This document shows positions 36,308-52,964 of a stretch of DNA of 64,000 bases, piece after piece. Source of the DNA: a virus (lineage: Duplodnaviria; Caudoviricetes); the IMG/VR virus record IMGVR_UViG_3300025018_000001; one strand, written 5' to 3'. The notes beneath the pieces were generated by a model that saw only the letters and a program-made list of their open reading frames with translations, was not told the DNA's origin and ran no database searches. Numbering within the stretch: position 1 is the first letter of the stretch; each line of letters opens with the position of its first letter. The position numbers and the translations under genes were made by a program.

Positions 36308-36592
36308 GTGCTTTACTACGGGAGCACAAAAAGAATGCCAAAAAATAATTATATAGTATACGATTGGCTAGAAGTAAGAGATGCTACTGATTCTTTGTAC
36401 AAAAGATTATTTAATGTAAAAATAGATAATTTTGTTAAAGATGTCTGTAGCAATGGGTTGCCACATGCAATGACCTCCGTATTAGCTGCAGCTTTTGTAC
36501 ATGGTTTAATCAAAGAAGATGCAGATGTTGATAAAGTTATTAATGCTTATTTACAGTTAGAAGATGTGGGATTTATCGGTGTGAAAGAGTAA
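36308..36592 (+). CDS. Hypothetical protein
   Basis: ORF; likely ATG start near 36335. Confidence 0.5.
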   Translation: MLYYGSTKRMPKNNYIVYDWLEVRDATDSLYKRLFNVKIDNFVKDVCSNGLPHAMTSVLAAAFVHGLIKEDADVDKVINAYLQLEDVGFIGVKE

Positions 36593-36706
36593 AGATTTGT
36601 TGTGGTTAAAGATTATTTGTGCAGCTTGTGGCTGGGTTTTGTGGTCATTAATTAACTAACCTTACTAACTTACACTTAAAAGAGGTGACGTCATGTAACA
36701 TTTTAC

Positions 36707-36735
36707 TTGCATAATTAATAGAAATAGATTATAAT
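36707..36735 (+). promoter_or_regulatory. Sigma70-type promoter for the RNA cluster
   Basis: TTGCAT-N17-TATAAT. Confidence 0.7.
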
Positions 36736-36780
36736 AGAGGATATAAATGATAGTTAGAAGTAGTAGATAGTTTTAAATTT

Positions 36781-36858
36781 CGTATTACAGGTAGTGTTAA
36801 ACATGGTTACTTCAATTGGTGAAAAATACACCTTGTTTGTTAGTTCTCCTGTAATACG
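36781..36858 (+). ncRNA. Stand-alone Y-RNA-like element E
   Basis: CGTATTACAGG/CCTGTAATACG stem; TAGTGT...TGGTTACTTC...TTAGTTCT family motifs. Confidence 0.7.
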
Positions 36859-36863
36859 AGTTC

Positions 36864-36947
36864 GCGGGGGTGGTGGAATAGGTAGACACAAGGGACTTAA
36901 AATCCCTCGGCTGCAATGCCATGAGAGTTCAAGTCTCTCCCTCCGCA
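36864..36947 (+). tRNA. tRNA-Leu(UAA)
   Basis: AGGGA-CTTAAAA-TCCCT, long variable arm, GAGAG-TTCAAGT-CTCTC. Confidence 0.93.
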
Positions 36948-36960
36948 TACAATTAATAAT

Positions 36961-37033
36961 GCCGGTGTAGCTCAGTTGGAAGAGCGCCTCCCTTGTAAGG
37001 AGGATGTCACGGGTTCGATTCCTGTTACCGGCT
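36961..37033 (+). tRNA. tRNA-Thr(UGU)
   Basis: GCCGGTG/TACCGGC, CCTCC-CTTGTAA-GGAGG. Confidence 0.93.
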
Positions 37034-37054
37034 CAGTATATAAAGGTGAATTCA

Positions 37055-37267
37055 ATGGGTGTTTTGAGTTGTGATAGACCTGGTTGCGATAACATAATGT
37101 GTGATAGGTATTCAGGTAAACATGGTTATTTATGTTGGGAATGTTTTAATGAATTGGTTGCTAAAAAAATACCTGTAAGCGAGTTCATGCGTACAATAAG
37201 AGCAGAAGAAGATGAGAATCCTTATACTGAAGAATTTTATAATGAAATTTTTCCAATACGAAATTAA
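37055..37267 (+). CDS. Small Cys-rich protein
   Basis: AAAGGTG SD, ATG at 37055; CDRPGC...CWEC. Confidence 0.6.
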   Translation: MGVLSCDRPGCDNIMCDRYSGKHGYLCWECFNELVAKKIPVSEFMRTIRAEEDENPYTEEFYNEIFPIRN

Positions 37268-37270
37268 TTA

Positions 37271-37344
37271 CTGGGTGTAGCTCAGTCCGGTAGAGTACGT
37301 GCCTTGGACGCACGGAGTCGTTGGTTCGAATCCTACCTTAGGAG
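37271..37344 (+). pseudogene. tRNA-Pro(UGG)-like gene with unpaired acceptor stem
   Basis: D arm and CGTGC-CTTGGAC-GCACG intact; 3' acceptor strand CTTAGGA does not pair with CTGGGTG. Confidence 0.65.
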
Positions 37345-37398
37345 CAATATACCCATAACAATAATAACAATAAGTGTATTTAAACAACAGGAGTTACC

Positions 37399-37995
37399 AT
37401 GTTTAGAATTGGTTTGGAGTTAGAAGAATTTTGTGTCAATGGAGAAAAAGAAGTTATCTTAATACCGAAAGAGTCAAATATACCACATGATGGTTGTGGC
37501 TGGCTCATCGAATACAGAAGTGATGCAAGTAAAGATATTGTTGATGCCGTGTTTAGTTTACGTGCACATGAGTATAAAACAATTGAAACGCTAAAGAAAT
37601 TTAATGTATCCGGCGCTAGAATACCTGTAATGAAACCAAATAAAACTGTACGTATGGCTGCAAGAAAACGGTTCATTAAAGGCCTTGTACAATTTAACAA
37701 CATTTATGGTCATCAGTGTCATAAGAATACTCTAGCTGAAGCAGTTGCTGCTATACATATTTCTGTAACCTTTAGTGTTGAAGGTAAACATGGTAGTATA
37801 AATAAAGTATGGGACTTTCCTGATTTTATACGTCATATGGATAAAAAATTTGCTGAAGAGATATCAGCTGCGAAAAGACGTCCAGGTTTTTATGAAATTA
37901 AAAGTGACGGTAGAGTAGAGTATAGATCTTTACCAAATAATGTTGATTTAACAAAACTGATGTATGAAGTAAATGCATATAAGTTTAAATATTAA
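37399..37995 (+). CDS. Minimal COOH-NH2 ligase-fold protein (198 aa)
   Basis: IGLELEEF, DGCGWLIEYRS, AAIHIS, PGFYEIKSDGRVEYRSLP. Confidence 0.65.
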   Translation: MFRIGLELEEFCVNGEKEVILIPKESNIPHDGCGWLIEYRSDASKDIVDAVFSLRAHEYKTIETLKKFNVSGARIPVMKPNKTVRMAARKRFIKGLVQFNNIYGHQCHKNTLAEAVAAIHISVTFSVEGKHGSINKVWDFPDFIRHMDKKFAEEISAAKRRPGFYEIKSDGRVEYRSLPNNVDLTKLMYEVNAYKFKY

Positions 37996-38004
37996 AAGTT
38001 GTAA

Positions 38005-38139
38005 TGCTATTTAGTGTAACGGCAAGCATGCTAAAATCTCCTTATCTGTTAGTTCCCTTACGTAAAAGTAAGTGGTGTAAGATATGGTTACTTCATATCA
38101 TAAATGAGAAGACTGGTTCGACTCCAGAAATAGCTACCA
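38005..38139 (+). ncRNA. tRNA-Y RNA chimera A (CAU anticodon-like loop, encoded CCA)
   Basis: Acceptor, D and T arms; inserted hairpin with GTTCC/TGGTGT internal loop then TGGTTAC-TTCAT-ATCATAA-ATGAG. Confidence 0.75.
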
Positions 38140-38157
38140 AAAATTAAAATAAGGATT

Positions 38158-38304
38158 TGATCTGTAGCTCAGTTGGCTAGAGCAGCTGTTTAAAAAAGCC
38201 TGTTTTTGTTTGTTCCTCCTTTCTCCTCCTTCGTTGTGGATGGTGTAGAAAACAGATACTTCATATGGCACAGCGGGTCGTCAGTTCGAGTCTGACCAGA
38301 TCAA
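38158..38304 (+). ncRNA. tRNA-Y RNA chimera B
   Basis: TGATCTG/CAGATCA, GCTC/GAGC, GCTGT/ACAGC, GTCAG-TTCGAGT-CTGAC; insert CTGTTTT...GTTCC...TGGTGT..AAAACAG-ATACTTC. Confidence 0.75.
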
Positions 38305-38314
38305 CAATAAAGTT

Positions 38315-38416
38315 TAAAAACATACCAGATACTAGGGTGCGGTTGGTTTCGAAAGCCAATGAATCTAGTAGAGAGCGGCGGAAAATACAGCGAGATGAGT
38401 TCGAGGTATGTTTTTA
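38315..38416 (+). ncRNA. Structured RNA displaying a Ser(CGA)-like anticodon stem-loop
   Basis: TAAAAACATACC/GGTATGTTTTTA, TACTAG/CTAGTA, TTGGT-TTCGAAA-GCCAA. Confidence 0.5.
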
Positions 38417-38429
38417 TTTAATATGTATA

Positions 38430-38563
38430 GCGGATGTAGCTCAGCTGGGAGAGCGCCTTCATCATAGACACTGTATTAGCTTATTCCCTATTTTAAATAG
38501 TGGTGTATAACACAGATACTTCAACCAAGAAGGAAGTCGATAGTTCAAGCCTATCCATCCGCG
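38430..38563 (+). ncRNA. tRNA-Y RNA chimera C
   Basis: GCGGATG/CATCCGC, CCTTC/GAAGG, GATAG-TTCAAGC-CTATC; insert CTGT..TTATTCC-CTATT/AATAG-TGGTGT..ACAG-ATACTTC. Confidence 0.75.
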
Positions 38564-38583
38564 ACTTTAAAAGGAAATATTAT

Positions 38584-38754
38584 ATGAGATACGATGAAAA
38601 TTTAACGAAAGAAGCTGTACATGAGTGGGCTATTAAACATTTTAAAGGGCCTATAGAAGTGTATGCATTTAGAAAAACTTTTGTAGCAGTATGCAAAGAA
38701 GAAGTTGTAAATGTCCACTGTGATACTGGTTCAGTTGAAGTGGAAGATAGATGA
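38584..38754 (+). CDS. Small hypothetical protein (56 aa)
   Basis: AAGGA SD, ATG at 38584. Confidence 0.5.
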   Translation: MRYDENLTKEAVHEWAIKHFKGPIEVYAFRKTFVAVCKEEVVNVHCDTGSVEVEDR

Positions 38755-38759
38755 TATAT

Positions 38760-38832
38760 TGCGGGTTAGAGAAACGGCCATCTCGCTAGGCTCATATCCT
38801 GGAAACAACCGGTTCAACTCCGGTACCCGCTA
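38760..38832 (+). tRNA. tRNA-Met(CAU), initiator-like
   Basis: 1:72 mismatch, A11-U24, CTAGG-CTCATAT-CCTGG, ACCGG-TTCAACT-CCGGT; lacks the full three G-C pairs of the anticodon stem. Confidence 0.85.
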
Positions 38833-38836
38833 AATT

Positions 38837-38925
38837 TAAAACTTGAATGGTGAATAGTATGGTTACTTCTATAGACTCTTAATCTAACCAAAAACAACCT
38901 TACTAGTATGTTCCTTCAAGTTTTA
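38837..38925 (+). ncRNA. Stand-alone Y-RNA-like element F with Lys(CUU) anticodon stem-loop
   Basis: TAAAACTTGAA/TTCAAGTTTTA; TGGTGAATAG..TGGTTACTTC; TAGA-CTCTTAA-TCTA; GTTCC. Confidence 0.75.
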
Positions 38926-38954
38926 ATACTTGCTGATGATGTAGTTGATTTGTA

Positions 38955-39025
38955 ACTAGGGTGGTGAATAGAACAGTTACTTCACTGTAAATGAAAAAAC
39001 GACTGTTCTAGTCTGTTCCCTCTAA
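38955..39025 (+). ncRNA. Stand-alone Y-RNA-like element G with Tyr(GUA) anticodon stem-loop
   Basis: AGGG/CCCT; TGGTGAA; TAGAACAG/CTGTTCTA; TTAC-TTCA-CTGTAAA-TGAA; GTTCC; directly upstream of the Ro gene. Confidence 0.75.
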
Positions 39026-39048
39026 TTCGTGTTAAAGGAGAAAACACA

Positions 39049-40455
39049 ATGGCAAAGTTAAACAAAGTACCCCAGTCCCTTAGAACTCATAATGGTGCAG
39101 TAGCTAAACACATCTCCCCTGAAAACATGCTTAGACGTTCTATTATGTCTTGCTTGCTTTGGGAAAAAGAGTACTACGAAGATGGTGTTACTATCGCACA
39201 ACGAATCGAAAAATTAGTACCACTAGTTGACCCAATGGTTGTTGCAGACTTGGCGATACTTGCTCGTACTAATATGAACCTCAGGCATGTACCACTGTTA
39301 CTGGTAAACACCATGCTAAAGTTCCCTGAACACAAGAAATATGCACGAGAAGTAATAGGTAAAGTTGTTAATCGTCCTGATGAACTTGGCGAACTTCTTA
39401 CTATGTACTTTGGTGGCGGAACCAAGAATAAACCATTGGCTAACTCTTTAAAGAAGGGTCTTGCTGATGCGTTTTGTAAATTCAATGAGTACCAGTTAGC
39501 TAAGTACAACAGGGAAGAAGCAATAAAACTCCGTGATGTACTGTTCCTGACTCATGCAAAACCAGTAGACAACACTCAGGCAGTGTTGTGGAAAAAGCTT
39601 ATCGGTGGCTTCTGTAAAAATTGTGGTGAAAGTCACTATAGCAAAGATACAAAACGAGTAGAGCCTAAAACAGAGGCTTGTTCACAGTATGAAGAGCTTA
39701 CGTTGGCTACACCTGACACTTGGGAAGTCGCTTTATCTTCTGGTGGAAACAAGCGTGAACACTGGACAAGACTACTTAAAGAAGGAAAGCTTGGTGCACT
39801 GGCACTGCTTCGTAACTTACGTAATATGCTTACTGCCGGTATTGATAAACAACAAATAGCAGAAGCTTTTACAAAGACTGACCTTAGTAAAGTTCTACCT
39901 TACAGGTACATAGCTGCTGCAAAGTATGCTCCAGGTTTGGAAAATATACTGGAAGATGGTATGTTCAAGAGCTTGAAAAATGCACCTCGTATGGAAGGAC
40001 GCACAACGCTGCTTATAGATGTTTCTGGTAGCATGGATTGGGCCTTATCTGCTAAGTCTGATCTTAAGAGATTGGATGCTGCTTGTGGTTTAGCTATGCT
40101 ACTTCGTGAAATCTGTGAAGACGTAGATATATTCACATTCAGTACCAGGCTTGTGCAGGTACCACCAAGAAGAGGGTTTGCTTTAAAAGAAGCCATAGAG
40201 CGTAGTCAAGGTCATAGCTCAACTTACCTTGGTAGGTCTTTAAAAGAGTTACAAAGTAAAACAAAATGTGATAGACTTATTGTTATCACAGATGAACAAT
40301 CGAACGACGCCGTACCAGATCCAAAAGGTACTGGCTATATGATAAACGTAGCTTCTGCCAGAAATGGTGTTGGTTACGGTGCTTGGACTCATGTAGATGG
40401 TTTTAGTGAGTCTGTAGTACGTTGGATTCAGGAATTGGAAAATGATAAAAAATAA
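39049..40455 (+). CDS. rsr: Ro60/Rsr (TROVE + vWA) RNA-binding protein
   Basis: LRRSIMSCLLWE, LRHVPLLL, RPDE, YQLAKY, LRDVLFL-x-H-x-KP, TWE, LLRNLRN, LP-x-R-Y, IDVSGSM, VITDEQ. Confidence 0.93.
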   Translation: MAKLNKVPQSLRTHNGAVAKHISPENMLRRSIMSCLLWEKEYYEDGVTIAQRIEKLVPLVDPMVVADLAILARTNMNLRHVPLLLVNTMLKFPEHKKYAREVIGKVVNRPDELGELLTMYFGGGTKNKPLANSLKKGLADAFCKFNEYQLAKYNREEAIKLRDVLFLTHAKPVDNTQAVLWKKLIGGFCKNCGESHYSKDTKRVEPKTEACSQYEELTLATPDTWEVALSSGGNKREHWTRLLKEGKLGALALLRNLRNMLTAGIDKQQIAEAFTKTDLSKVLPYRYIAAAKYAPGLENILEDGMFKSLKNAPRMEGRTTLLIDVSGSMDWALSAKSDLKRLDAACGLAMLLREICEDVDIFTFSTRLVQVPPRRGFALKEAIERSQGHSSTYLGRSLKELQSKTKCDRLIVITDEQSNDAVPDPKGTGYMINVASARNGVGYGAWTHVDGFSESVVRWIQELENDKK

Positions 40456-40477
40456 GTTATGGTAGATGTGTAATACT

Positions 40478-40517
40478 AGTAGCTAGAAACTGGCAATTTT
40501 TAGCTACTTTAATTTTT
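40478..40517 (+). terminator. Rho-independent terminator after the Ro gene
   Basis: AGTAGCTAGAAA/TTTTTAGCTACT stem followed by TTAATTTTT. Confidence 0.65.
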
Positions 40518-40532
40518 GTGTAGTCAACATGG

Positions 40533-40561
40533 TTGACAATCATTGATTATGTGTGTATTAT
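40533..40561 (+). promoter_or_regulatory. Strong sigma70-type promoter
   Basis: TTGACA-N17-TATTAT; -35 lies in the palindrome GTCAAC-ATG-GTTGAC. Confidence 0.75.
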
Positions 40562-40783
40562 GTATTTACTATTTTAGTATTTCTGCTGGCAACAGATTTA
40601 CTAAGCTTTTTAAGACTGGAAAACAATATAACAAGATGGCCGTCCCTTTTATCGAATAGCTGCATCGCGCTGCGAAAGATCCGGGACCTCCTAGTTTGAG
40701 TTCGAAAGTTTAAGCAACTAGGTTGAATGGGTAGGGGTGGGGATTTTTTATCATTTATTATTAATTTAAATATTTGGGGGTGT

Positions 40784-41110
40784 ATGGAAAGAGATCTTTG
40801 TGACTTGATGGCGAACGGTGGTGATGACTTTGGTAGCCAGTATGACTATAATTCAGATGAATGTACTTCAAGAGAATTTGGTAGTCGAGATCTAGGTACA
40901 GCAATGACTTTTGCAGAGATGCTCGCAGAAGAAGAATCATTGTCCGGTTTAATGGAGTCAATGGATGCACACGACCCAGAAGAATTGTTGGAAGCTATGG
41001 AAATAGCCCAAGACAAAGATAAAGTAACACGTGTTAGTCTTAAGAGTAGGAATACGGATGCTCCTGCTTTTGAACAATACGTTTATGCAAAATGTGGACT
41101 AGTTAGATAA
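40784..41110 (+). CDS. Acidic hypothetical protein
   Basis: GGGGG SD, ATG at 40784. Confidence 0.6.
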   Translation: MERDLCDLMANGGDDFGSQYDYNSDECTSREFGSRDLGTAMTFAEMLAEEESLSGLMESMDAHDPEELLEAMEIAQDKDKVTRVSLKSRNTDAPAFEQYVYAKCGLVR

Positions 41111-41295
41111 TGCCTATTTACAATTACGAGTGTTCTGTCTGTAAAAAAAAGTATGAATCTATACAACCGATGGACACTAAAACAATACAATGTACTTGTG
41201 GTGAAACAGCTAAAAAAGTACCGTCTCTAACTAATTTTCAACTAAAAGGTGGAGGTTGGGCAAAAGATGGATACAGTAGCGGTGGTAAAAAGTAG
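41110..41295 (+). CDS. FmdB-family zinc-ribbon protein
   Basis: MPIYNYEC-x-x-C...C-x-CG...F-x-LKGGGW-x-x-DGY. Confidence 0.9.
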   Translation: MPIYNYECSVCKKKYESIQPMDTKTIQCTCGETAKKVPSLTNFQLKGGGWAKDGYSSGGKK

Positions 41296-41584
41296 TTGCG
41301 AATTTGAAAATAATATGTTAAACTTACTTATCGGTAAGAGGTATTCAATAACACTATTCGCACATGACACGCCAATGGTTGGTACAATTAAATCAAAAGA
41401 AGCTAAGGATAAATCAAATCATACTTATTGGTTTTCTTGGTGGGATGAAGCACGAAAACAAAATGTAGGACATTACATATTTGATAGAGGTTATGCTAAT
41501 ACCAAAAGAACAATTGTATATAATCAATATAGTATACGTACATGTAAAGAAGTATGTCCTAACATTGACCCTAAAAAAGATTAA
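41249..41584 (+). CDS. Hypothetical protein
   Basis: ORF; true start probably downstream. Confidence 0.5.
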   Translation: MEVGQKMDTVAVVKSSCEFENNMLNLLIGKRYSITLFAHDTPMVGTIKSKEAKDKSNHTYWFSWWDEARKQNVGHYIFDRGYANTKRTIVYNQYSIRTCKEVCPNIDPKKD

Positions 41585-41590
41585 GGAGAC

Positions 41591-42115
41591 GTGATGTTGC
41601 TCGTCGAAAAAGCAATGCTATTTGCTATTGAAGCACATAAAGGTACATTTAGAAAATTTGATGGTACAGCTTATATAAAACATCCTTTTTCTGTCATGGG
41701 GATTATGACTGAATACTCGGATGACCCTGCTGTACTAGCGGCTTGTCTACTACATGACACAGTCGAAGATATTGATGATATTACATTAGAAACAATGCAC
41801 GATACATTTGGTGAACGAGTGGCGAGTAACGTTTTTTATGTTACAGAAAAAGCTACTAAAGCTGACGGTAGTCGTAGAGTACGAAAAGAAATTGACCGTA
41901 TTCATTACAGTAAAGGTACAGTAGATTCACAAAATATAAAAGTAGCGGATATGTTGGATAATATTCCTGGTATTGTATTATGCGACCCTAAATTTGCACC
42001 TATATACTTAGAAGAAAAAAGACAGCTTTTATGGAGCTTAACAAAAGCAGTTCCAGATATAAAAGCTAAAGCAGAAAGACTAATAAACCAGATGTACTTA
42101 ATTCTAGGTAATTAG
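41591..42115 (+). CDS. HD-domain (p)ppGpp hydrolase-like protein (Mesh1/SAH type)
   Basis: A-x-EAH-x-G-x-FRK...YIKHP, LLHDTVED, IKVADMLDN. Confidence 0.85.
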   Translation: MMLLVEKAMLFAIEAHKGTFRKFDGTAYIKHPFSVMGIMTEYSDDPAVLAACLLHDTVEDIDDITLETMHDTFGERVASNVFYVTEKATKADGSRRVRKEIDRIHYSKGTVDSQNIKVADMLDNIPGIVLCDPKFAPIYLEEKRQLLWSLTKAVPDIKAKAERLINQMYLILGN

Positions 42116-42121
42116 TTTATA

Positions 42122-42257
42122 GGCCTGTTAGCTCAATCGGTTAGAGCATTAAGCTAAACCTTATTAGCTAGTTCCCTATTTAATTATAGCGGTGTATAAT
42201 ATGGTTACTTCTCTTATGATAAAAGAAAGATGGTAGGTTCGAATCCTCCACAGGCCA
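42122..42257 (+). ncRNA. tRNA-Y RNA chimera D (Ile-like body, GAU anticodon-like loop)
   Basis: GGCCTGT/ACAGGCC-A, D and T arms; insert CCTTATTA-GCTAGTTCC-CTAT/ATAG-CGGTGT-ATAATATGG-TTAC; TCTT-ATGATAA-AAGA. Confidence 0.78.
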
Positions 42258-42476
42258 AATTAAATTATTAACAAATGAATAAGGTCTCTGGTTGAGTAAT
42301 TCTAGATAGGGTGGTTCAATTCCGCCCGCCTTGAAAAATGTTGGGGTTGATGTGTTAGTCCTCCATGTATAGCTCCTAGGTAAGCTTACAGAAGCACTCA
42401 AGTGTAAACTGCAACTCTTCGTGGTTATCAGACTAAACCACGTTAACTTAATAGGGAGATTCCAAATAAGAAAAAC

Positions 42477-43199
42477 ATGAAAGAACCAAATGAGATAGAT
42501 ATTCTCGACTTGAATTATCCTTTACTTGTGAAATTTAAGGAGAAGTGTCCTGGTACTTTTGCACATAGCAAGAAATTAGCAGAAGTATTAGAAAAAATAG
42601 GTACTGCGCTTGGTCTTGATTCCAAAGTATTAAAAACTATAGGTCTGTATCATGATGTAGGTAAAATGGTAACACCTGTTTTATATTCTGAGAATCAACC
42701 AATAGATTTTAATCCACATGATAACCTGGAGCCTTGGATTTCATTTGCTCTAGTAGCTGGTCATGTAGCGCACTCAGTACAAATACTACTAAACGACCCT
42801 AACTTTGATGATGAGTTGGTAAAAGTATGCTCTCAACATCATGGCACAACTCTAGCTTTGTGCTTCTTTAAGAAAAGTGGTAGTGAAAATGAAGAGGAGT
42901 ATAGATACACAACACTTCGTCCACAATCTTTTGAAGCCGCATTACTAATGATTTGTGACCATCTAGAAGCACGTATTCGTTCTGAAATGAATAGCGGTAG
43001 GATAACAGATAAAGAGGGTATTGAAAATATAGTAGAGATAGTTTTCAATAGTTTAGTAGACGATGGTCAATTCGATGATGTAGCCGTACCGAGTTTTAAA
43101 ATATTACGGACACTGAAAAGTACACTGAAATTAGAATTTTCAGAGTTGTTCGAAGACCATAAGCGTATAGACTACGCACAAGATACAGTAAAGAAATAA
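42477..43199 (+). CDS. Stand-alone HDIG phosphohydrolase (PgpH/7TM-HD-like catalytic domain)
   Basis: PGTFAHS, LYHDVGK, ENQ...NPHD, QHHGTT, P-x-SFEAALLMICD. Confidence 0.85.
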   Translation: MKEPNEIDILDLNYPLLVKFKEKCPGTFAHSKKLAEVLEKIGTALGLDSKVLKTIGLYHDVGKMVTPVLYSENQPIDFNPHDNLEPWISFALVAGHVAHSVQILLNDPNFDDELVKVCSQHHGTTLALCFFKKSGSENEEEYRYTTLRPQSFEAALLMICDHLEARIRSEMNSGRITDKEGIENIVEIVFNSLVDDGQFDDVAVPSFKILRTLKSTLKLEFSELFEDHKRIDYAQDTVKK

Positions 43200-43216
43200 C
43201 TTTTGGTTAAGCTACT

Positions 43217-43429
43217 ATGACAATGAAAGTTTACAAAGTTGGCGAAAAATCTAAAGCCATATGTCACATCTGCAAAGCGATTAAAGAAACAACTTTTGAT
43301 TTAAGAGACGTTCCTCTTTCTGATGGTACAGCTATTGCTAAAGAAGCATTGGTAGGTATTTGTGATACTTGTAATACTATTGTGTCAATGCCAGCGCAGC
43401 ACATACATTATAAAAAATTGAGTTTGTAA
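43217..43429 (+). CDS. Zn-ribbon protein (YgiT/MqsA N-terminal-like)
   Basis: CHIC...CDTC. Confidence 0.55.
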   Translation: MTMKVYKVGEKSKAICHICKAIKETTFDLRDVPLSDGTAIAKEALVGICDTCNTIVSMPAQHIHYKKLSL

Positions 43430-43597
43430 TACTAATAGTATCAAACTGCTTCCGCAAAGAAGTGTAAGTGAAAGAAAGCAGCCTGTGAATAGGCCTAAGA
43501 CGACTATATGTACCGCACGTAAAGTGGCTGACATGGTAGCGTGGTTGCCATCGTAAGGACGAAAACCCTAAGTGCAAATCTTGTAAAACTATTAGTA
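43430..43597 (+). ncRNA. ~170-nt structured intergenic RNA
   Basis: TACTAATAGT/ACTATTAGTA closing stem; CTGCTT/AAGCAG; ATGGTAGC/GTTGCCAT. Confidence 0.45.
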
Positions 43598-43622
43598 CTA
43601 CTTTTACCTACATACAGGAGTA

Positions 43623-43808
43623 ATGATGGAGAAAAATGAAACTGTTTGTGTAATAACCACTGTAAATATGTGTGCTAAATGCCCAAACTTTGTTGATAAT
43701 TATGGTTGGGATAACGATTGGTGTAAGCATAAAGACGCTTCATGTATGTGGATTTATGATGCTAGTATAATTGATCCAAATTGTCCTATTAGGAAAAAAA
43801 AATGTTGA
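43623..43808 (+). CDS. Small Cys-rich protein
   Basis: AGGAG SD; C-x-x-CP...C...CP. Confidence 0.6.
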   Translation: MMEKNETVCVITTVNMCAKCPNFVDNYGWDNDWCKHKDASCMWIYDASIIDPNCPIRKKKC

Positions 43809-44017
43809 ACAAACTGAGACGTAATTCATTAGGCATAGCTCTTAGGAGTAATCAACCGGAGTTAGTTGGTCGTTTATTAGTGGTTATTGACAATCTAAAA
43901 GATAATTGGTTAAGAGTACGTCTAATGCAACTTGGAAGTCATTGTAATGTAGACTGGGCTAAAGATGATTTTGTGATACCTAGAGAACATTTTTTATTTA
44001 TAAACAAAAGGTTATGA
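43802..44017 (+). CDS. Hypothetical protein (71 aa)
   Basis: Coupled ORF. Confidence 0.55.
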   Translation: MLNKLRRNSLGIALRSNQPELVGRLLVVIDNLKDNWLRVRLMQLGSHCNVDWAKDDFVIPREHFLFINKRL

Positions 44018-44018
44018 T

Positions 44019-44189
44019 ATGAAAGTCAAGGATGCAAAAGCATTATTAGATACCTTCGATGATGAAGCTGAATTAGTATTACTAGGAGAAGACTCAACAA
44101 CCTATGATATTAAAAACTGCGACACTGCTAAAGACTCCAAACTGGTTTGGTTTGAAATAAAAGAAACCGGAATGTGTGATGGCTGTTAA
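44019..44189 (+). CDS. Small hypothetical protein (56 aa, not in ORF track)
   Basis: ATG at 44019 just after the upstream stop; MKVKDAKALLDTFDDEAE. Confidence 0.55.
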   Translation: MKVKDAKALLDTFDDEAELVLLGEDSTTYDIKNCDTAKDSKLVWFEIKETGMCDGC

Positions 44190-44240
44190 GTAAATATTAA
44201 TGTAACTAGTAATTTTATAACTCGTATTAACGTATTATTA

Positions 44241-44341
44241 TAGTATGAGTTAGCGCAACTTAGACCAGTGAATTGAGATACGGCGTTCAGCAGTAACTGG
44301 TTACTTCAATGTAGATACGCCGTTGGTCCTAACTTGTACTA
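44241..44341 (+). ncRNA. Distal Y-RNA-like candidate upstream of nadM
   Basis: 13-bp closing stem, GACCA/TGGTC, CGGCGT/ACGCCG; contains GTGAA and TGGTTACTTC motifs. Confidence 0.5.
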
Positions 44342-44342
44342 T

Positions 44343-44391
44343 AGTAGTATAATTATTACTAATCCTTAGATGCTATGATGCGATAGGAGAA
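44343..44391 (+). promoter_or_regulatory. NAD-gene leader motif, copy 1
   Basis: AGTAGTATAAT..AATCCTTAGATGCTATGATGCGATAGGAGAA, shared with 45776-45818. Confidence 0.65.
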
Positions 44392-44396
44392 GTGAA

Positions 44397-45290
44397 ATGA
44401 AAGAACAATCCGCAAATGTAGGCGTTGTAATTGGTCGTTTCCACGTAGACGATCTCCACGAAGGTCACCTAAATCTACTTTCTACAGTAGAGAACTCACA
44501 CAGTAGACTTATTATTTTTGTAGGTCTATCTCACAACAAATGTACTTATAATAACCCTTTAGATTTTGAATCAAGGCGGTCTATGTTACAAGCACATTAT
44601 CCAAAAGCAACTATTCTTTATATTAGAGACGTACATGACGATGTGATCTGGTCCAAAGATCTCGATAATAAAATATTGAACTTAATAGGGCCTAATCAAA
44701 CCGTATGTCTTTATGGTAGTAGGGATTCTTTTATTCCGTATTATCATGGAAAATTTCCAGTTAAAGAACTTGTACAAGAAACTTATTTCTCAGGCACCGA
44801 AGTACGCAAACAAGTAGCTATTAGATCCAATTCTACTAGAGACTTTAGAGCAGGTGCTATATGGGCGTTAGGTAATCAGTATGCATCCCCTAATTTTACT
44901 ATTGATGTTGCTATATTCAATGATGATTTTACTCGTGTCCTTCTCGGTCGCAAAATAAGAGAATCAAAATATAGATTCATTGGCGGCTTTATTCAAAACT
45001 CAGAGAAGATATCTGATGCCGTTGCAAGGGAAGCGTTGGAAGAAACTCATCTCGTACTTAATAATATTACTTACATTGATAGTTTCCCGTCTACTGACTG
45101 GCGTTACAAAGGTGAAAGAGATAAGATTACTACTATACTCCATACTGCTACAATTAAATCAGGCACACCTGAACCAGATGATGATATACATGAGCTTCGT
45201 TGGTTTGACTTCAACGGTGAAGTAATGGAACATCTCGTCCCAGAGCATCTTGAAATGATGAATCAGTTGTTACTCAAATCACGGAGTTAA
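44397..45290 (+). CDS. nadM: Bifunctional NMN adenylyltransferase / Nudix ADP-ribose pyrophosphatase
   Basis: IGRFH-x-x-x-LHEGH, NPL-x-F, Nudix box GG-x5-E-x7-REALEET. Confidence 0.92.
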   Translation: MKEQSANVGVVIGRFHVDDLHEGHLNLLSTVENSHSRLIIFVGLSHNKCTYNNPLDFESRRSMLQAHYPKATILYIRDVHDDVIWSKDLDNKILNLIGPNQTVCLYGSRDSFIPYYHGKFPVKELVQETYFSGTEVRKQVAIRSNSTRDFRAGAIWALGNQYASPNFTIDVAIFNDDFTRVLLGRKIRESKYRFIGGFIQNSEKISDAVAREALEETHLVLNNITYIDSFPSTDWRYKGERDKITTILHTATIKSGTPEPDDDIHELRWFDFNGEVMEHLVPEHLEMMNQLLLKSRS

Positions 45291-45298
45291 TTATAATA

Positions 45299-45496
45299 AT
45301 GATAAGAAAAACTGTATGCTTACCTATAAAAGTACCAGAAGGTAAGTACTGTTGGGAATATAACGTAGCTGGTACCTGTGATTACCATGATAATGAAGGT
45401 GGTACATCTGTATGTACATTACACTTTGATGTTAAAGAAACAAAGAAAGGCGTTATTAAGGACCCACTTTGCGCCTCATTAACATTGGTGAAATGA
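45299..45496 (+). CDS. Small Cys-containing protein
   Basis: ORF only. Confidence 0.55.
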   Translation: MIRKTVCLPIKVPEGKYCWEYNVAGTCDYHDNEGGTSVCTLHFDVKETKKGVIKDPLCASLTLVK

Positions 45497-45559
45497 CTGG
45501 CAAAAGACATATATGGTCATGAAATAACAGCAGATAGTGCCACAGAACTTGAAGGGCTT

Positions 45560-45772
45560 ATGTGTTGGAATAATCATAGGGTATTCAGCCTTATAAAAGA
45601 TAGACATGGTGTATTCTGGTCTGGATGGGATATAAACAGACATTATCCACACACATGGGAGCATCATGCTGACAATCTTGGTAGCGACCCTGAAGAAGCT
45701 AAAAGGTTACACAAAATAGAAACAGATAGAATACGAGCTAAGATTGATGAAGATCCATCAAGATGCTGGTAA
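45560..45772 (+). CDS. Hypothetical protein (70 aa)
   Basis: ORF only. Confidence 0.5.
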   Translation: MCWNNHRVFSLIKDRHGVFWSGWDINRHYPHTWEHHADNLGSDPEEAKRLHKIETDRIRAKIDEDPSRCW

Positions 45773-45775
45773 TAG

Positions 45776-45818
45776 AGTAGTATAATATAAATCCTAGATG
45801 CGTTGATGCAAGGGAGAA
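45776..45818 (+). promoter_or_regulatory. NAD-gene leader motif, copy 2
   Basis: AGTAGTATAAT..AATCCTAGATGCGTTGATGCAAGGGAGAA. Confidence 0.65.
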
Positions 45819-45823
45819 ACAAC

Positions 45824-47170
45824 ATGAAAAGAAGAAGCTTAGTATTTAAAACGGATTCCTATAAATCAAGTCACTGGTTACAGTTCCCTGAGAATAGAGG
45901 AAGTTACTACTACATAGAATCACGTGGTGGTGCAGAAGAAGTACTCTTCTTTGGTCTACAAGCAGTCATCAAAAGAATACTTTCAAAAATGCCTACAAAG
46001 AAAGAAGTTAAAAAAGCTGCTAAATTCTGGGCAAACCACGGAGTTGCTTTCAATAAGAAAGGTTGGATGAAACTTGTTAAACTTGGTTATTATCCGATTG
46101 AAATTCACGCTGTGGAAGAAGGTAAATTAATAAAAACAAAAGAAGTACAAGTAACAATTGAGTCTACTGATGACCGATTTGGTTGGCTTCCTGGTTGGAT
46201 TGAGACGACGTTGCTCCAGCTATGGTATCCTACTACAGTTGCGACGAAGCAATTCGAGTGTAAGAAAGTTATACTTGAGTACTTAAAGAAAACTGGTACC
46301 CCTGAAGATGCACCATTCAAACTACACTCATTTGGTTATAGAGGTGTTAGTTCTGAGGAGTCTGCTGGCATAGGTGGATCTGCTGAGTTACTTACATCCA
46401 TGGGTACTGACACTGTTGCTGGTATACTTGAAGCACAAGACATGTACAATACTAACGCTATGCTTGGCTTTAGTATAAATGCAGCGGAACACAGTACTAT
46501 TACTGCCTGGGGAAGAGAGTTTGAGCGTGATGCATACGAGAATATGCTCAATCAATTTCTTAAGCCTGGGGCTATTGTAGCAGTTGTGTCTGATAGCTAT
46601 GACCTAAGTAATGCTGTACTGAAGTATTGGGGTGGTGAGTTTAAAGAACGTATAATTCAATCAGGTGGTACATTGGTAGTGCGGCCTGATTCCGGTGAGC
46701 CATCTGAGATAGTACTTAGAACTCTTGAACAACTTGGCGAATGCTTTGGTACTGAAGTAAATGCTAAAGGATATAAAGTTCTTCCAAGTTACGTAAGAGT
46801 GATCCAAGGCGATGGCCTTAATGGTGCTGACGATATACGTAAAGTATTAGAAGTTATAACAGAGGCCGGTTGGTCCGCTGACAACGTAGCATTTGGTATG
46901 GGTGGTGGATCATTACAACAAGTCAACCGTGACACCTACAAATATGCTATGAAGATGTCTGCCATTTTCAAAAAGAACAAGGATGGCCAATTTGCTTGGT
47001 CTGATGTATTTAAAGAACCTGCTGATGCACCGTGGAAAAATAGTAAGAAAGGTAGATTTGATAAATTAAATCTACCACTTATTTGGAAAGATGGTAAGTT
47101 TTTTAAACAGTACACATTTGAAGAAGTGCGTGCTAACGCAATGGGTGAGCTTGAACGTAAGACAAGTTAA
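45824..47170 (+). CDS. nadV: Nicotinamide phosphoribosyltransferase (NAMPT)
   Basis: KTDSYKSSH, FFGLQ, FGYRG, AAEHS, VSDSYD, VRPDSG, IQGDG, FGMGG. Confidence 0.93.
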   Translation: MKRRSLVFKTDSYKSSHWLQFPENRGSYYYIESRGGAEEVLFFGLQAVIKRILSKMPTKKEVKKAAKFWANHGVAFNKKGWMKLVKLGYYPIEIHAVEEGKLIKTKEVQVTIESTDDRFGWLPGWIETTLLQLWYPTTVATKQFECKKVILEYLKKTGTPEDAPFKLHSFGYRGVSSEESAGIGGSAELLTSMGTDTVAGILEAQDMYNTNAMLGFSINAAEHSTITAWGREFERDAYENMLNQFLKPGAIVAVVSDSYDLSNAVLKYWGGEFKERIIQSGGTLVVRPDSGEPSEIVLRTLEQLGECFGTEVNAKGYKVLPSYVRVIQGDGLNGADDIRKVLEVITEAGWSADNVAFGMGGGSLQQVNRDTYKYAMKMSAIFKKNKDGQFAWSDVFKEPADAPWKNSKKGRFDKLNLPLIWKDGKFFKQYTFEEVRANAMGELERKTS

Positions 47171-47319
47171 CTCAGAGGGTGCAGAAGGACTATAGTAACT
47201 GACAAGATTATATGAATTCGAGTGCCTGATGGTGTTGCCGTGGAGGTTATGTATTATGGGAGTCTGTCAAACTCTTTAACTGAGGATAACGGTAACACCA
47301 CATTTTTTAAGGAGACTAT

Positions 47320-47526
47320 ATGGGATTTGCAACATTGCCAGAAAAGAAAAAGATAAAACCACGATATAAGAATACGCTTGTATGTCAAGAGTGTGGTACT
47401 GAATTTGGAGCCAACGTTACGTTTGTGCGAGGTATATCAGAGATACGTGGAACAGACTTTGAAAGATTTACACCACTAACTAAGATAGAAAAAGGCACAT
47501 GTCCCATGTGTAGTAATAATGTATAA
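47320..47526 (+). CDS. Zn-ribbon small protein
   Basis: CQECG...CPMC; AAGGAG SD. Confidence 0.6.
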   Translation: MGFATLPEKKKIKPRYKNTLVCQECGTEFGANVTFVRGISEIRGTDFERFTPLTKIEKGTCPMCSNNV

Positions 47527-47716
47527 GCGTAGCGGTGGGACTACAGACATAGAAGTAGTAAATCATATTGACTATATTGTTGTTGAGCCAAAAGTTAACC
47601 CTAAAAAGAAAATAAAAACATCTATGTATAAAGAGTCTAAAATAGCCCGTCACACAACAGTTGGTGGAAAGGGTATCGTAGGTAGGATATACAATAAAAA
47701 AGGTAAGAAGCTATGA
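47519..47716 (+). CDS. Small basic protein
   Basis: Coupled ORF. Confidence 0.5.
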   Translation: MYKRSGGTTDIEVVNHIDYIVVEPKVNPKKKIKTSMYKESKIARHTTVGGKGIVGRIYNKKGKKL

Positions 47717-48162
47717 TGCAGACATTAAATTGTGATATACTACACGGCTTAAAAGCAGACCAAAAAACAGTTATACTGCACGGTTGTAATTGTTTTAATA
47801 CGATGGGTGCAGGTATTGCAAAGTATTTACGTGGTAAATTTCCAAACGTATATGCAGTAGATTGTGCAACAAAGCGTGGCGACAAGAATAAATTAGGCAC
47901 ATGTAGTAGGGCAGTAATAAGTCATAACTTACATATTCTAAATTGTTATACTCAGTACAACTACGGAAGAGAGAAGAAGCTATATGCAAATTATATAGCT
48001 ATTGATGAATGTTTTAAAAGAATTGCTGCTGATTATGACACTACTTGGGAAATACGTATGCCTAGAATAGGTTGTGGCCTTGCCGGTGGTGATTGGGAAG
48101 TAATTGGTGCTTTGGTTGTTAATAATTTTAATAAGCATAACACAAACATATATTTTAAATAG
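47713..48162 (+). CDS. Macrodomain protein (ADP-ribose binding/hydrolase)
   Basis: HGCNC-x-x-TMGAGIA, MPRIGCGLAGGDW. Confidence 0.9.
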   Translation: MMQTLNCDILHGLKADQKTVILHGCNCFNTMGAGIAKYLRGKFPNVYAVDCATKRGDKNKLGTCSRAVISHNLHILNCYTQYNYGREKKLYANYIAIDECFKRIAADYDTTWEIRMPRIGCGLAGGDWEVIGALVVNNFNKHNTNIYFK

Positions 48163-48170
48163 GACTTAAC

Positions 48171-48983
48171 ATGTTGACAGAAATTAAAAAGAAAGAATTT
48201 GCTAATGGTTGTGTATATCTTTATGAGACTAAAGATAATTACCCCTTAGAAGTTACAGATACATTTTTACCAGCTTATACAAAAGATTCTATAGGTACTC
48301 ATCAAAATTTCCTTAAGGATGGTAACCTTGGTAGTAGAGATGAACGTTGGATGATTGGTGTATCAACTATGTCAGGATGTCCAGTAGGATGTAGATTTTG
48401 CGCAACAGCTAGTATGAAAAGATGTAGGAATCTTAAATCCCCTGAGATAGTAGCGCAAGTAGTTGAAATGGTGGCAAAACAAAAGAAAGAGTTAGTTGAA
48501 GGTTTGGTACTTGGTAAACGTGAAGGAGAGTTTAAAATAAACTACACACGTATGGGCGAACCATTTCTAAATATAGATGAAGTTAAAGCTGCTATTAAAG
48601 CAATTGATACTATACTTGCTGGTACTAAAGTACATCATTACATTTCCACTATTGGTGTAAAAGGCGCCGATTATTCATGGATTAAAGATAATATTACCTT
48701 ACAATTCTCTGTACATTCTTTTAATGAAGAGTACCGTGACTGGTTAATTCCTTTCAAGAACAAAATATCTTTGGAAGAAATGGGAAAGGTCAGGACAGGA
48801 AGTAAACTAAAAACAACTATCAACCTTACTCTAGCTAGAGCACGCGATTTTGATATTGATGCTTTGAAAAAGTATTTTGACCCTGAATATTTTTTTATTA
48901 AGATAAGCCCTATCAATGAAAATGATGTGTCAAAAAGTAATCAAATGGGTAGCGGGATTATTGGTCAGCATAATATAGTTTAA
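48171..48983 (+). CDS. RlmN/Cfr-like radical SAM protein
   Basis: S-x-x-SGCPVGCRFCAT, RMGEPFLN, ISTIG, LQFSVH. Confidence 0.8.
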   Translation: MLTEIKKKEFANGCVYLYETKDNYPLEVTDTFLPAYTKDSIGTHQNFLKDGNLGSRDERWMIGVSTMSGCPVGCRFCATASMKRCRNLKSPEIVAQVVEMVAKQKKELVEGLVLGKREGEFKINYTRMGEPFLNIDEVKAAIKAIDTILAGTKVHHYISTIGVKGADYSWIKDNITLQFSVHSFNEEYRDWLIPFKNKISLEEMGKVRTGSKLKTTINLTLARARDFDIDALKKYFDPEYFFIKISPINENDVSKSNQMGSGIIGQHNIV

Positions 48984-48988
48984 TATTA

Positions 48989-49294
48989 TTGGAGGGTACA
49001 TGTATGGCAATAGATCTTAAATCAGAAGTAGCCTTATTAAAAAAGTTAAAGAAAAGATTTTCGAGCAACGACTTATATTTTATGTCAATACAAGACATGT
49101 ATGAGGAGGGCTTGATTACACAAAAAGCTTTTAGATCAATTACTAATTGGTTAGCTAATATAGGTCAACCTAAAACAAGTGTAAGTATAAAAAGTAATGT
49201 AGGTCGAAATAGGGTAATACCTAGAAAAGAAATTGTACAAGAAGTTGACCCATGTAGTCATGGTGGAGGAAGCTTTAGAAATACATCATGTTAA
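48989..49294 (+). CDS. Hypothetical protein
   Basis: ORF. Confidence 0.55.
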   Translation: MEGTCMAIDLKSEVALLKKLKKRFSSNDLYFMSIQDMYEEGLITQKAFRSITNWLANIGQPKTSVSIKSNVGRNRVIPRKEIVQEVDPCSHGGGSFRNTSC

Positions 49295-50174
49295 ATACAA
49301 CGTTTACAAATAAGTTACAGTTTAGAAAAAAGAGTTGTAGTTTAAATGAAAAAAATGGTATTGATATACCTCACAATTACGTTAATATTTATGTAAAAAT
49401 TACAAGTAATTGTAATGCTAAATGTAACTTTTGTGTATATCGTAACAAAACACATAATACAAAGGAACAGTTTGACTTTATTAAGTTTGAAAACATGTTA
49501 TTGTTATTAGAAGCAGAAGACATACACATACATAAAGTGTCTTTTACGGGTGGTGAACCTTCAATGTATTGTAATAGGCTTGCAAAATGTTTAAACAGTA
49601 TAGCAAAGTTAAAATACAAACCATTTATTGTAGTAAATTCTAACGGATTTAGACTTAATTTGTTACAGCAATTCAAAGAGATTGACAGTATATCCCTTTC
49701 AAGGCATACACTAACTGACATAAGTAACTGTAGTGTATTTGGTACATTATCTGTTGCAAAAATCGCAGATATGAAACAAAATGTTAGTAACAAGATACAC
49801 TTGACCTGTAATCTAATAAAAGGACGTGTTGACTCAGAAAAAACTATAATTGATTACTTAGAAAAAGCGGCATCTCTTGGTATATATATGATGTTGGTTT
49901 TGTTAGTCTTATGAAGGTAAATGATTTTTGTACTAAACACCACGTAGATTTCAACGATATAGAATTTAAAGATCCATCCATAGTATGTAATAAGGAATGG
50001 ACTTATTCCGATATATGTAGGTGTAAAAATTTTATATACTTACCTGAGGAAGGAACTAAAGTAGTTAAATTTTACTCGCGCTACAGGTGTAGGAATGACG
50101 CAGAAGCTGAGAGTAACTACGTCTTTGATGATGGATACTTAAAAGATAATTTTAGTGGTAAAATAATTTACTGA
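49288..50174 (+). pseudogene. Radical SAM protein split by a +2 frameshift in a TA run (ORFs 49288-49914 and 49911-50174)
   Basis: CNAKCNFC, FTGGEP, NSNG; removing one AT at 49881-49889 gives ...GIYDVGFVSLMKVNDFC... in one frame. Confidence 0.7.
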
Positions 50175-50184
50175 GGAGGCTATT

Positions 50185-50382
50185 ATGGCAGAAGAAATAA
50201 GAAGACAAACTACTGATGGTAGGATGGTTACCAAAGAAGAATACATTAAAGAAGTTAAAGAAGCACTTATAAAAATTCAACTAGCTGAAGCTGGTTATGA
50301 CTATGCTATAGCTGTTGCTACGGATGCTGAGGTTAAAGCTGGTGCAGCTTGTGGACAATTAGCTATCATTAATGAGAGTTAA
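50185..50382 (+). CDS. Hypothetical protein (65 aa)
   Basis: GAGGAGG SD. Confidence 0.65.
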   Translation: MAEEIRRQTTDGRMVTKEEYIKEVKEALIKIQLAEAGYDYAIAVATDAEVKAGAACGQLAIINES

Positions 50383-50707
50383 TATGAAAAAAGTTTATAT
50401 ATCTTCTAAATACAGCGAAGGTGACAAAGATACTAATGTACAAGCACAAGTAACAGCTGGAAACTTACTAATAGATCGAGGTTTTAATCCCTTTGTACCA
50501 CTTTTGACACATTATTTAGATAAAGACCAGCCAAGACCTTATAATTACTGGCTAGGTGCCTTGATTGAGTGGTTAAAATTGTGTGATTGTTTATTAAGAC
50601 TTGAAGGAGCAAGCCCAGGAGCTGATATAGAAGTAATGATGGCAAAGCGTTTAGGTATACCAGTCTTCTATTCTATTGAAGAACTACTTAGCCATTATAA
50701 AAAGTAA
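50372..50707 (+). CDS. DUF4406 / nucleoside deoxyribosyltransferase-like protein
   Basis: VYISS-x-Y, GFNPFVP, CD-x-LL-x-L-x-G-x-S-x-GA-x-x-E. Confidence 0.7.
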   Translation: MRVNMKKVYISSKYSEGDKDTNVQAQVTAGNLLIDRGFNPFVPLLTHYLDKDQPRPYNYWLGALIEWLKLCDCLLRLEGASPGADIEVMMAKRLGIPVFYSIEELLSHYKK

Positions 50708-50718
50708 AGGAGGAGGCC

Positions 50719-51342: not shown

Positions 51343-51353
51343 AGGAATTTAAT

Positions 51354-51788
51354 ATGTCAGATATACCAGCTGGTTACCAGCTTCGGGTCACTACGTGGGA
51401 AAATGATGGTGACCACTATAGTACAGAAATAACCTCTGGGTTAACTAAGGAAGACACAAGGTTTCTTATTTCTATTGCAGAACAGTTTAGTAAAAAAGGT
51501 AAATATGGGAATGACTTCATAAAAGACACTGATTTAATTGAAGTTATATCAAATGCTTTAGAAAGTAGCTCAGGTATAACATTACTAATGCGAGCTGATT
51601 GGCAAGAAGCTTTACAAAATAGTATTGATGAGGGTGATGGTGCTTATTATTTACATGAAATACTAAGTGATACTTTACTAAGCTGCCCTCAAGAGGACTA
51701 TGGTTCTGGGTTCTGTAGAAATGTGGAAACAATAGAAGTTTATTATATACCTGAAGATATTACTGAGGTAACAAAAGAATTTATTTAA
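51354..51788 (+). CDS. Hypothetical protein (144 aa)
   Basis: AAGGA SD. Confidence 0.7.
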   Translation: MSDIPAGYQLRVTTWENDGDHYSTEITSGLTKEDTRFLISIAEQFSKKGKYGNDFIKDTDLIEVISNALESSSGITLLMRADWQEALQNSIDEGDGAYYLHEILSDTLLSCPQEDYGSGFCRNVETIEVYYIPEDITEVTKEFI

Positions 51789-51796
51789 AGGAGTTA

Positions 51797-52942: not shown

Positions 52943-52964
52943 TAAATCTTAATTGTGAGGTATT

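Follow-up and report, generated by a model that had tools for sequence, protein, structure and literature searches.

The 64,000-nt stretch of the groundwater phage record IMGVR_UViG_3300025018_000001 (Duplodnaviria; Caudoviricetes) analyzed here, hereafter the window, contains between positions 38005 and 42257 four plus-strand RNA genes, named A–D, that are shaped like complete tRNAs and lie on both sides of a gene encoding a Ro60 homolog. The question raised by this locus is why a phage would keep such tRNA-shaped genes, each with the same additional module built into it, around Ro60. We propose, with a probability of about 0.6, that A–D are Ro60-partner RNAs, i.e., YrlA-type Y RNAs in native tRNA topology; their putative link to Ro60 is statistical and based on homology of position, as judged by sequence comparison.

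Fold of the four genes and the shared module

The four genes and their parts are listed below, with bit scores from R1, a covariance model built from A–D and their orthologs in the viral contigs L001, L002 and L013.

38005..38139, + strand: A, candidate tRNA-topology Y RNA (R1, 130.9 bits)
38040-38094: module of A, with P2 at 38040-47/38080-87, J5' at 38048-56, P1 hairpin at 38057-72, J3' at 38073-79 and tail at 38088-94
38092-38108: anticodon-like hairpin of A, loop AUCAUAA
38137-38139: encoded CCA of A
38158..38304, + strand: B, candidate tRNA-topology Y RNA (R1, 108.7 bits), with orthologs at L001 5247-5393 and L002 4883-5030
38200-38262: module of B, inside the anticodon stem GCUGU/ACAGC, without an anticodon hairpin
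38430..38563, + strand: C, candidate tRNA-topology Y RNA (R1, 104.2 bits)
38471-38522: module of C; the anticodon stem CCUUC/GAAGG holds AUCAUAG, the module and further nucleotides
42122..42257, + strand: D, candidate tRNA-topology Y RNA (R1, 113.4 bits), with orthologs at L001 9133-9261 and L013 10915-11050
42159-42211: module of D, followed by an anticodon-like hairpin at 42212-42226 with loop AUGAUAA and core stem UCUU/AAGA

The genes are 132–147 nt long, and the extra length is an insert located 3' of the D arm. Each gene has an open 7-bp acceptor stem formed by its own 5' and 3' ends (7/7 pairs in B–D; 6/7 in A, with a U1.U72 mismatch), T stems with 4–5 of the 5 pairs, T loops that fit UUCRANY, and the elbow nucleotides U8, A14 and D-loop GG. 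All seven acceptor pairs covary, as do the D and T stems. In A and D, an anticodon-like hairpin is followed by a 4–5 nt variable loop and the T arm; among the orthologs of A in L001 and L002 the stem of this hairpin shows compensatory changes (UUCAU/AUGAG vs UUCUA/UAGAG). B and C lack an anticodon hairpin; the acceptor, D and T arms of the cloverleaf are present, and the anticodon arm is not directly 3' of the D arm. ARAGORN called none of the four as a tRNA, and the Rfam tRNA model (RF00005) reached D alone among them, at 41.3 bits, with 75 nt replacing the anticodon arm. The CCA after A is retained in L002 and reads CCG in L001, and therefore carries little weight as support for tRNA-like maturation. 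The phage tRNA-Met (CAU) at 38759-38833 has the same U1.U72 mismatch as A.

Within the 60–75 nt insert, the module itself occupies 52–63 nt and follows one order: P2, a stem of 8 bp, comes first, then an asymmetric internal loop and P1, a capping hairpin whose length varies, and finally a tail, (U/A)UACUUC, directly 3' of P2. The 5' side of the internal loop is about 9 nt long and ends in (G/A)UUCC, and its 3' side reads (U/C)GGUGUA. The module lies between the D stem and the anticodon-like hairpin in A and D, and takes the place of the anticodon loop in B and C. Across the four inserts the geometry is constant while the sequence varies.

When the window was searched for the motif, well-paired modules numbered exactly seven, and all of them map to the + strand at 36.8–42.2 kb. 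Three of them are stand-alone Y-like hairpins:

36779..36860, + strand: E, stand-alone Y-like hairpin, module order opposite to that in A–D, with a 13-bp P1 formed by its ends
38837..38925, + strand: F, stand-alone Y-like hairpin, inner hairpin loop CUCUUAA (Lys CUU-like)
38955..39025, + strand: G, stand-alone Y-like hairpin just 5' of the Ro60 start codon, inner loop CUGUAAA (Tyr GUA-like)

In E–G the ends pair as P1, followed by UGGUG(A/U)A, the 3' strand of P2, UUACUUC, a loop, the 5' strand of P2, GUUC(C/U) and the partner strand of P1. Such a permuted order cannot be produced by copying DNA, so the folded loop must be what is conserved. E stops 3 nt 5' of a tRNA-Leu gene (36864), and F starts 4 nt 3' of the tRNA-Met gene. 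A long intergenic hairpin at 44240-44340, 3.8 kb downstream of Ro60, with GGUUACUUC, GUGAAU and a GACCA/UGGUC stem, is a looser eighth variant of the module and was left uncounted.

The structure was evaluated on nine sequences, A–D and the orthologs mentioned above, aligned with MAFFT and compared with a hand-drawn five-helix structure. Standard pairs filled 93.9% of the cells, compared with 66.8 ± 2.0% after shuffling and 37–45% when the 3' partners were slid, and both sides had changed in 22 of the 29 pairs. R1, built from the same nine sequences, recovered homologs on which it had not been trained, at 72–80 bits in crAss-like contigs and the cultured phage crAss001 and at 88 bits in contig L167 (52% G+C), while ordinary tRNAs and YrlA-type RNAs scored at most 46 bits. 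Among 23 distinct homologs, 96.8% of the stem cells were paired, compared with 66.8% in shuffles, and 25 of the 28 pairs showed compensatory change; this alignment was fitted to R1 and is biased towards the structure, and the independent nine-sequence MAFFT result agrees with it. The pairing of A–D is not due to chance. The tRNA-topology form was conserved in three lineages, namely the clade of the window, crAss001-like phages, and L167, of higher G+C, in which ACCA is encoded. A megablast search of positions 37000-43000 against GenBank phages gave no match.

These results bear out a preliminary description of this stretch made from its letters alone. It had placed the four elements at these coordinates with 6/7 acceptor pairs in A and 7/7 in B–D, had described the insert as outer stem, internal loop, capping hairpin and tail, had read the loops AUCAUAA and AUGAUAA and a terminal CCA in A, and had attributed the differences between stems to covariation; all of this was recovered.

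The covariation also bears on whether A–D might be decaying tRNA genes, broken by the insertion of mobile or duplicated Y-RNA-like DNA. Such decay would account for the failure of ARAGORN to find them and for odd tRNA-like remnants at 37277-37337 and 42280-42345. However, the five helices stay paired through many compensatory changes in all three lineages, the insert geometry is constant despite sequence change, and the permuted order of E–G cannot derive from DNA copying. Covariation thus rules out decayed genes for practical purposes, and we regard this highly improbable explanation as close to refuted.

The Ro60 gene and YrlA-type relatives

39049..40455, + strand: Ro60 gene (TROVE + vWA), 468 aa

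The encoded protein matched TROVE (PF05731) with an E-value of 1.8e-22 and vWA_Ro60 with 26 bits, slightly below the cut-off; its best match among solved structures was Ro60 of the Thermus phage phiLo (9KOP/9L5Y, E 1.9e-27), and homologs were found in viral contigs and cultured phages. A starts 1044 nt 5' of the Ro60 start codon, A–C lie 0.5–1.0 kb upstream of the gene, and D starts 1667 nt 3' of its stop codon.

We examined how often the module and Ro60 occur together in viral loci. A first pattern scan of viral contigs returned mostly chance matches and was used after scoring of P1/P2 pairing (at least 10 of 11 tested pairs). A well-paired module was found in 12 of 120 loci, and 11 of these 12 encode a Ro60 homolog (35–78% identity), compared with 0 of the 108 loci without a well-paired module. 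The twelfth, L013, carries a D ortholog that lies 776 nt from the locus edge. In a second, more specific scan, a few loci of which overlap contigs from the first, Ro60 was encoded in the locus for 19 of 24 matches of tRNA topology, the remaining five being at most 800 nt away from a cut end, on the expected side, and for 41 of 51 matches of YrlA-type topology. Two crAss-like loci carry tmRNA genes near Ro60 (L098 11141-11445; L085 5992-6438), which fits bacterial hosts.

The YrlA-type matches connect A–D with known Y RNAs. RNAs in canonical YrlA order were found in contigs L077, L078, L081, L056, L011 and L044 and in Xanthomonas phage Olaya and Caulobacter phage CcrColossus, all of which have Ro60 homologs. 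Their order is P1, UGGUGUAG (GGCGUAG in CcrColossus), P2, UUACUUC, sometimes an anticodon-like hairpin, the T arm and a closed acceptor hairpin, followed by UA, the D arm, P2', GUUCC and P1'. The module is therefore the terminal stem of the YrlA-type RNAs of related phages, with the same conserved loop and tail as in A–D. The Rfam YrlA model (RF02553) matched these relatives with 31–46 bits (E 3e-8 to 4e-3), in one case over the full length of the model; these scores fall below the gathering score of 69 bits, yet the E-values are significant. Both sub-types occur in both topologies: a separate anticodon-like hairpin is present in A and D and in L077 186-300, and the anticodon stem encloses the module in B and C and in L077 735-880. 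The preliminary description had proposed a circular permutation, with real tRNA ends and an internal Ro module, and the canonical-order relatives that share loop and tail argue for it. The comparison supports the reading of A–D as the YrlA five-helix object opened, as it appears, at the acceptor end rather than at P1. The YrlA/YrlB motif GNCGAAN0-1G overlaps nucleotides required for binding Rsr, the bacterial Ro60 (PMC4201824), and the module strand GGUG(U/A)A(G) is one base away from it. As the terminal stem of YrlA-type relatives, the module sits at the Ro60-binding position of characterized Y RNAs.

In contig L135 (1870-2110), YrlA-type units with identical P2 lie in tandem, and the segment that begins with one D arm and ends with the following T arm mimics tRNA topology. 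An R1 match there (67 bits) was dropped, as R1 spans two adjacent units and not a true tRNA-topology gene. This arrangement hints at a route by which one topology could evolve from the other.

Such forms occur in two named phages. CcrColossus has been named as a Y-RNA phage (PMC12135203, citing PMC4201824) and encodes about eight YrlA-type RNAs 5' of its Ro60 gene. Its annotated tRNA-Gln (L122 2131-2198; NC_019406 109217-109284), comprising a module strand, an anticodon-like hairpin with CUG and a T arm, is the 5' half of a YrlA-type RNA. In crAss001 (L121 5419-6325; NC_049977 complement 95964-96870), the gap after the TROVE gene gp96 holds four modules, none of which is annotated in RefSeq. 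Two of them belong to tRNA-topology genes (5693-5836 and 5948-6086; NC_049977 complement 96453-96596 and 96203-96341), another is a short hairpin, and the fourth is a long form. The crAss001 literature mentions only the early TROVE gene. In the literature that we searched, no Y RNA encoded in tRNA topology was described, nor any Y RNA in crAss001.

The module could be real and yet be bound or processed by a different protein encoded in these islands, for instance an HD enzyme, ligase or RNase; it would then accompany Ro60 only as part of a shared tRNA/RNA-repair cassette. The module strand is neither the published GNCGAA nor GGUCCGA, and D adjoins HD genes rather than Ro60. On the other hand, Ro60 is the sole gene common to the dissimilar loci of crAss001, Olaya (43 kb), CcrColossus and the window, jumbo phages included, the other neighbors differing, and the module occupies the terminal-stem position that Rsr binds in YrlA and Yrn1 (PMC4201824). 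We consider a different partner quite unlikely.

Anticodon-like loops and the possible role of A–D

Anticodon-like hairpins were scored as having a 7-nt loop after the tail in which position 2 is U and position 6 is a purine. Such hairpins follow the tail in 20 of 70 candidate segments, compared with 3.6% of shuffles, and the loops displayed include CAU in A, GAU in D, CUU in F, GUA in G and many others in relatives. Three phages share an identical D hairpin while differing in all of the acceptor, T and P1 stems, and so the anticodon-like loop seems to be read by something.

Such conservation would also suit an explanation in which A–D, or at least A and D, are working tRNAs (CAU, Met/Ile2-like; GAU, Ile-like). 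The module would then be either an additional arm that translation tolerates or a new short intervening sequence, removed by a phage or host nuclease and sealed by a neighboring RNA ligase, with the excised hairpin perhaps a Y-like RNA in its own right. Once linkers and module are taken out, A and D give a normal cloverleaf: the anticodon stem has 5 bp, its 7-nt loop carries U33 and A37, the variable loop has 4–5 nt, and A73 is present. Among the D orthologs the anticodon hairpin shows strict conservation; joining the first six nucleotides enclosed by the anticodon stem of C to the last one would spell AUCAUAA; and two RNA ligase genes and HD enzymes lie nearby. However, B has no convincing anticodon loop, and the 60–75 nt insert gave no match to the group I model RF00028 in the window. 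The same model detects a real group I intron at L001 2154-2392 (65.6 bits), right after the E ortholog, which indicates that the search works. Since the module also occurs in non-tRNA RNAs (E–G and the YrlA-type RNAs), it is not intron-specific, and we know of no bacterial or phage enzyme that splices such an insert.

Metagenome data speak to the insert as well. DNA of the window occurs in aquifer and cold-spring metagenome runs, and no RNA run was found to contain it; four sequencing runs were compared with positions 37990-39048. A cold-spring RNA run yielded nothing in this segment. In three wastewater 'cDNA' runs, short contigs from relatives cover A, B, C, F, G and 38330-38420; these runs are flagged as probably DNA, so the contigs are no guide to transcription, ends or splicing. 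One relative's contig has 66 other letters where A has 69, the insert being replaced and not removed, which counts against splicing. All considered, we judge working or spliced tRNAs to be unlikely.

Several observations weigh against the proposal that A–D are Ro60-partner RNAs. RF02553, which the preliminary description had put forward as a check on the native sequence, and the Rfam Y_RNA model found no match in positions 36500-43500 at E-values up to 10. The loop motif has U where GNCGAA has C, and it also departs from the vertebrate GGUCCGA. Without their inserts, A and D would be ordinary tRNAs, which is compatible with excision, and their hairpins are more conserved than the surrounding stems, which would also fit synthetase recognition or decoding. 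Finally, 10 of the 51 YrlA-type matches have no Ro60 in the fetched locus, some of them lying 2–3 kb from both ends. With regard to proximity, the preliminary description was right about the window, where three copies lie within about 1.1 kb upstream of Ro60.

The neighborhood of Ro60 includes the following features:

40478..40508, + strand: terminator-like hairpin 3' of Ro60, 12 bp and a T run, from a consensus scan only
40533-40561: promoter-like site, from a consensus scan only
41591-42115 and 42477-43199: HD enzymes, one of them a RelA/SpoT-type HD (HD_4)
50719-51342 and 51797-52942: RNA ligases (PF09414), one with a PHA02142 OB domain

The island at 41591-53000 also encodes NUDIX, NAMPT, a Macro domain and two radical-SAM proteins, and these neighbors likely fit an RNA-damage/RNA-repair, NAD-salvage and anti-defense island. 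A preprint has reported that a Ro60-like protein of phage Bas63 counters a defense system, and its authors guess that some 'tRNA' genes close by are Y RNAs (10.1101/2024.10.10.617714).

If A–D are Ro60-partner RNAs, the phage Ro60 would bind the internal loop of the module. The consensus scan found no terminator-like site on the + strand at 36634-40478, and on this basis the candidates may be transcribed together with the tRNA array and the Ro60 gene across 36.6–40.5 kb. Host RNase P, 3' trimming enzymes and the CCA-adding enzyme could then release and cap A–D, comparable to M. smegmatis YrlA (PMC4201824), and such processing would yield nuclease-resistant RNAs without a closed acceptor loop. 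With E ending 3 nt before tRNA-Leu and F beginning 4 nt after tRNA-Met, the short forms could be freed by the same enzymes. The L-shaped body and free 3' end, together with the anticodon-like loop in A and D, might present a tRNA look-alike, tethered by Ro60, to a tRNA-recognizing partner, and the likely setting is RNA damage or anti-defense. More tentatively, and we hold this to be doubtful, the RNA in the Ro60 particle would be a near-complete and possibly chargeable tRNA whose anticodon-type loops serve to decoy or to sense host enzymes that cleave or bind tRNA anticodon loops, with Ro60 holding the bait and passing damaged ends to the neighboring RNA ligases or a host exonuclease.

Three further structured elements occur near these genes. 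Between B and C, a separate RNA at 38315-38416, covered by the relatives' contigs, is closed by a stem of 12 bp; inside it are a second stem, UACUAG/CUAGUA, and a hairpin, UUGG..CCAA, whose loop is UUUCGAAAG. This RNA has only CAGAUAC in common with the family. In the leader of the open reading frame 37399-37995, a tRNA-like element at 37272-37355, conserved in the relatives' contigs, matched the Rfam tRNA model with 42 bits over model positions 7–64 only; it has a UGG anticodon loop, and the 3' strand of its acceptor is shifted by about 13 nt. After D, at 42280-42345, a 6-bp T-arm-like hairpin, GGGUGG UUCAAUU CCGCCC, lies between AAGG and CCUU and might serve as a miniature tRNA-like mark for processing.

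Since 2014 it has been asked why bacterial Y RNAs mimic tRNA. In these phages one Ro-type module appears in three forms: as short hairpins, in YrlA-type RNAs whose acceptor is closed, and in genes of full tRNA topology that have free ends and in some cases an anticodon-like loop. This series suggests that the tRNA part is selected as a tRNA and not just as a stable fold. The cultured phage crAss001, where the tRNA-topology form directly follows the early gene gp96, offers a tractable test system. For annotation, the findings account for the 130–150 nt 'failed tRNAs' near phage Ro60 genes and flag at least one annotated phage tRNA, the tRNA-Gln of CcrColossus, as part of a Y RNA.

Comparison with known Y RNAs and tRNA-like genes

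Several known systems share part of this architecture. Introns of tRNA genes, both the group I introns of bacteria and phages and the bulge-helix-bulge introns of archaea, are likewise inserts in the anticodon region. A group I tRNA intron is usually longer than 200 nt, whereas the insert of A–D is too short, lacks a group I core and is common to non-tRNA RNAs. A bulge-helix-bulge intron has, where exon and intron meet, a pair of 3-nt bulges with a 4-bp helix between them, and it needs a splicing endonuclease. The permuted tRNA genes of algae and archaea and tmRNA present the tRNA fold in other circular orders or with large inserts between the halves; however, the former are processed back into normal tRNAs, the latter lacks a Ro module, and neither is linked to Ro60.

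Among the Y RNAs, YrlB and other short forms, and Yrl1 and Yrl2 of phage phiLo, are stem-loop-stem RNAs beside Ro60, and the phiLo Ro60 binds its neighboring Y-like RNAs (PMC12135203). E, F and G fit this class, which is without a tRNA body; the phiLo motif is CGAA, compared with GUGAA/GUGUA in the window. D. radiodurans Yrn1 is bound by Ro and has some tRNA-like features, with an order of T and D arms relative to its ends unlike that of YrlA (PMC4201824); in contrast to A–D, its ends form the Ro-binding stem and it has no open acceptor stem.

YrlA (RF02553; Chen et al. 2014, PMC4201824; PDB 6CU1) is, like A–D, encoded beside Ro60 in several copies per locus. Both have tRNA-like D and T arms and an L-shaped body with a stem at the anticodon side, which binds Ro in YrlA and would do so in A–D. 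YrlA has been called a 'circularly permuted tRNA' whose acceptor stem is closed (bioRxiv 10.1101/312249). Its Ro stem is made by the 5' and 3' ends, and a loop caps its acceptor stem, whereas A–D use their ends for the acceptor stem and have a hairpin at the end of the putative Ro module; E–G, unlike A–D, share the end-paired module stem of YrlA. A and D, unlike YrlA, keep a separate anticodon-like hairpin. The nearest precedent is the YrlA of M. smegmatis, which is cleaved by RNase P and receives CCA (PMC4201824), giving a Y RNA with tRNA-like ends and CCA, as proposed here for A–D; such ends have been reported solely after cleavage and in this one species (PMC4201824). There the tRNA ends arise by cutting a closed loop, which leaves a nicked RNA in two pieces, whereas in A–D the topology is encoded in the gene and an RNA in one piece would be expected.

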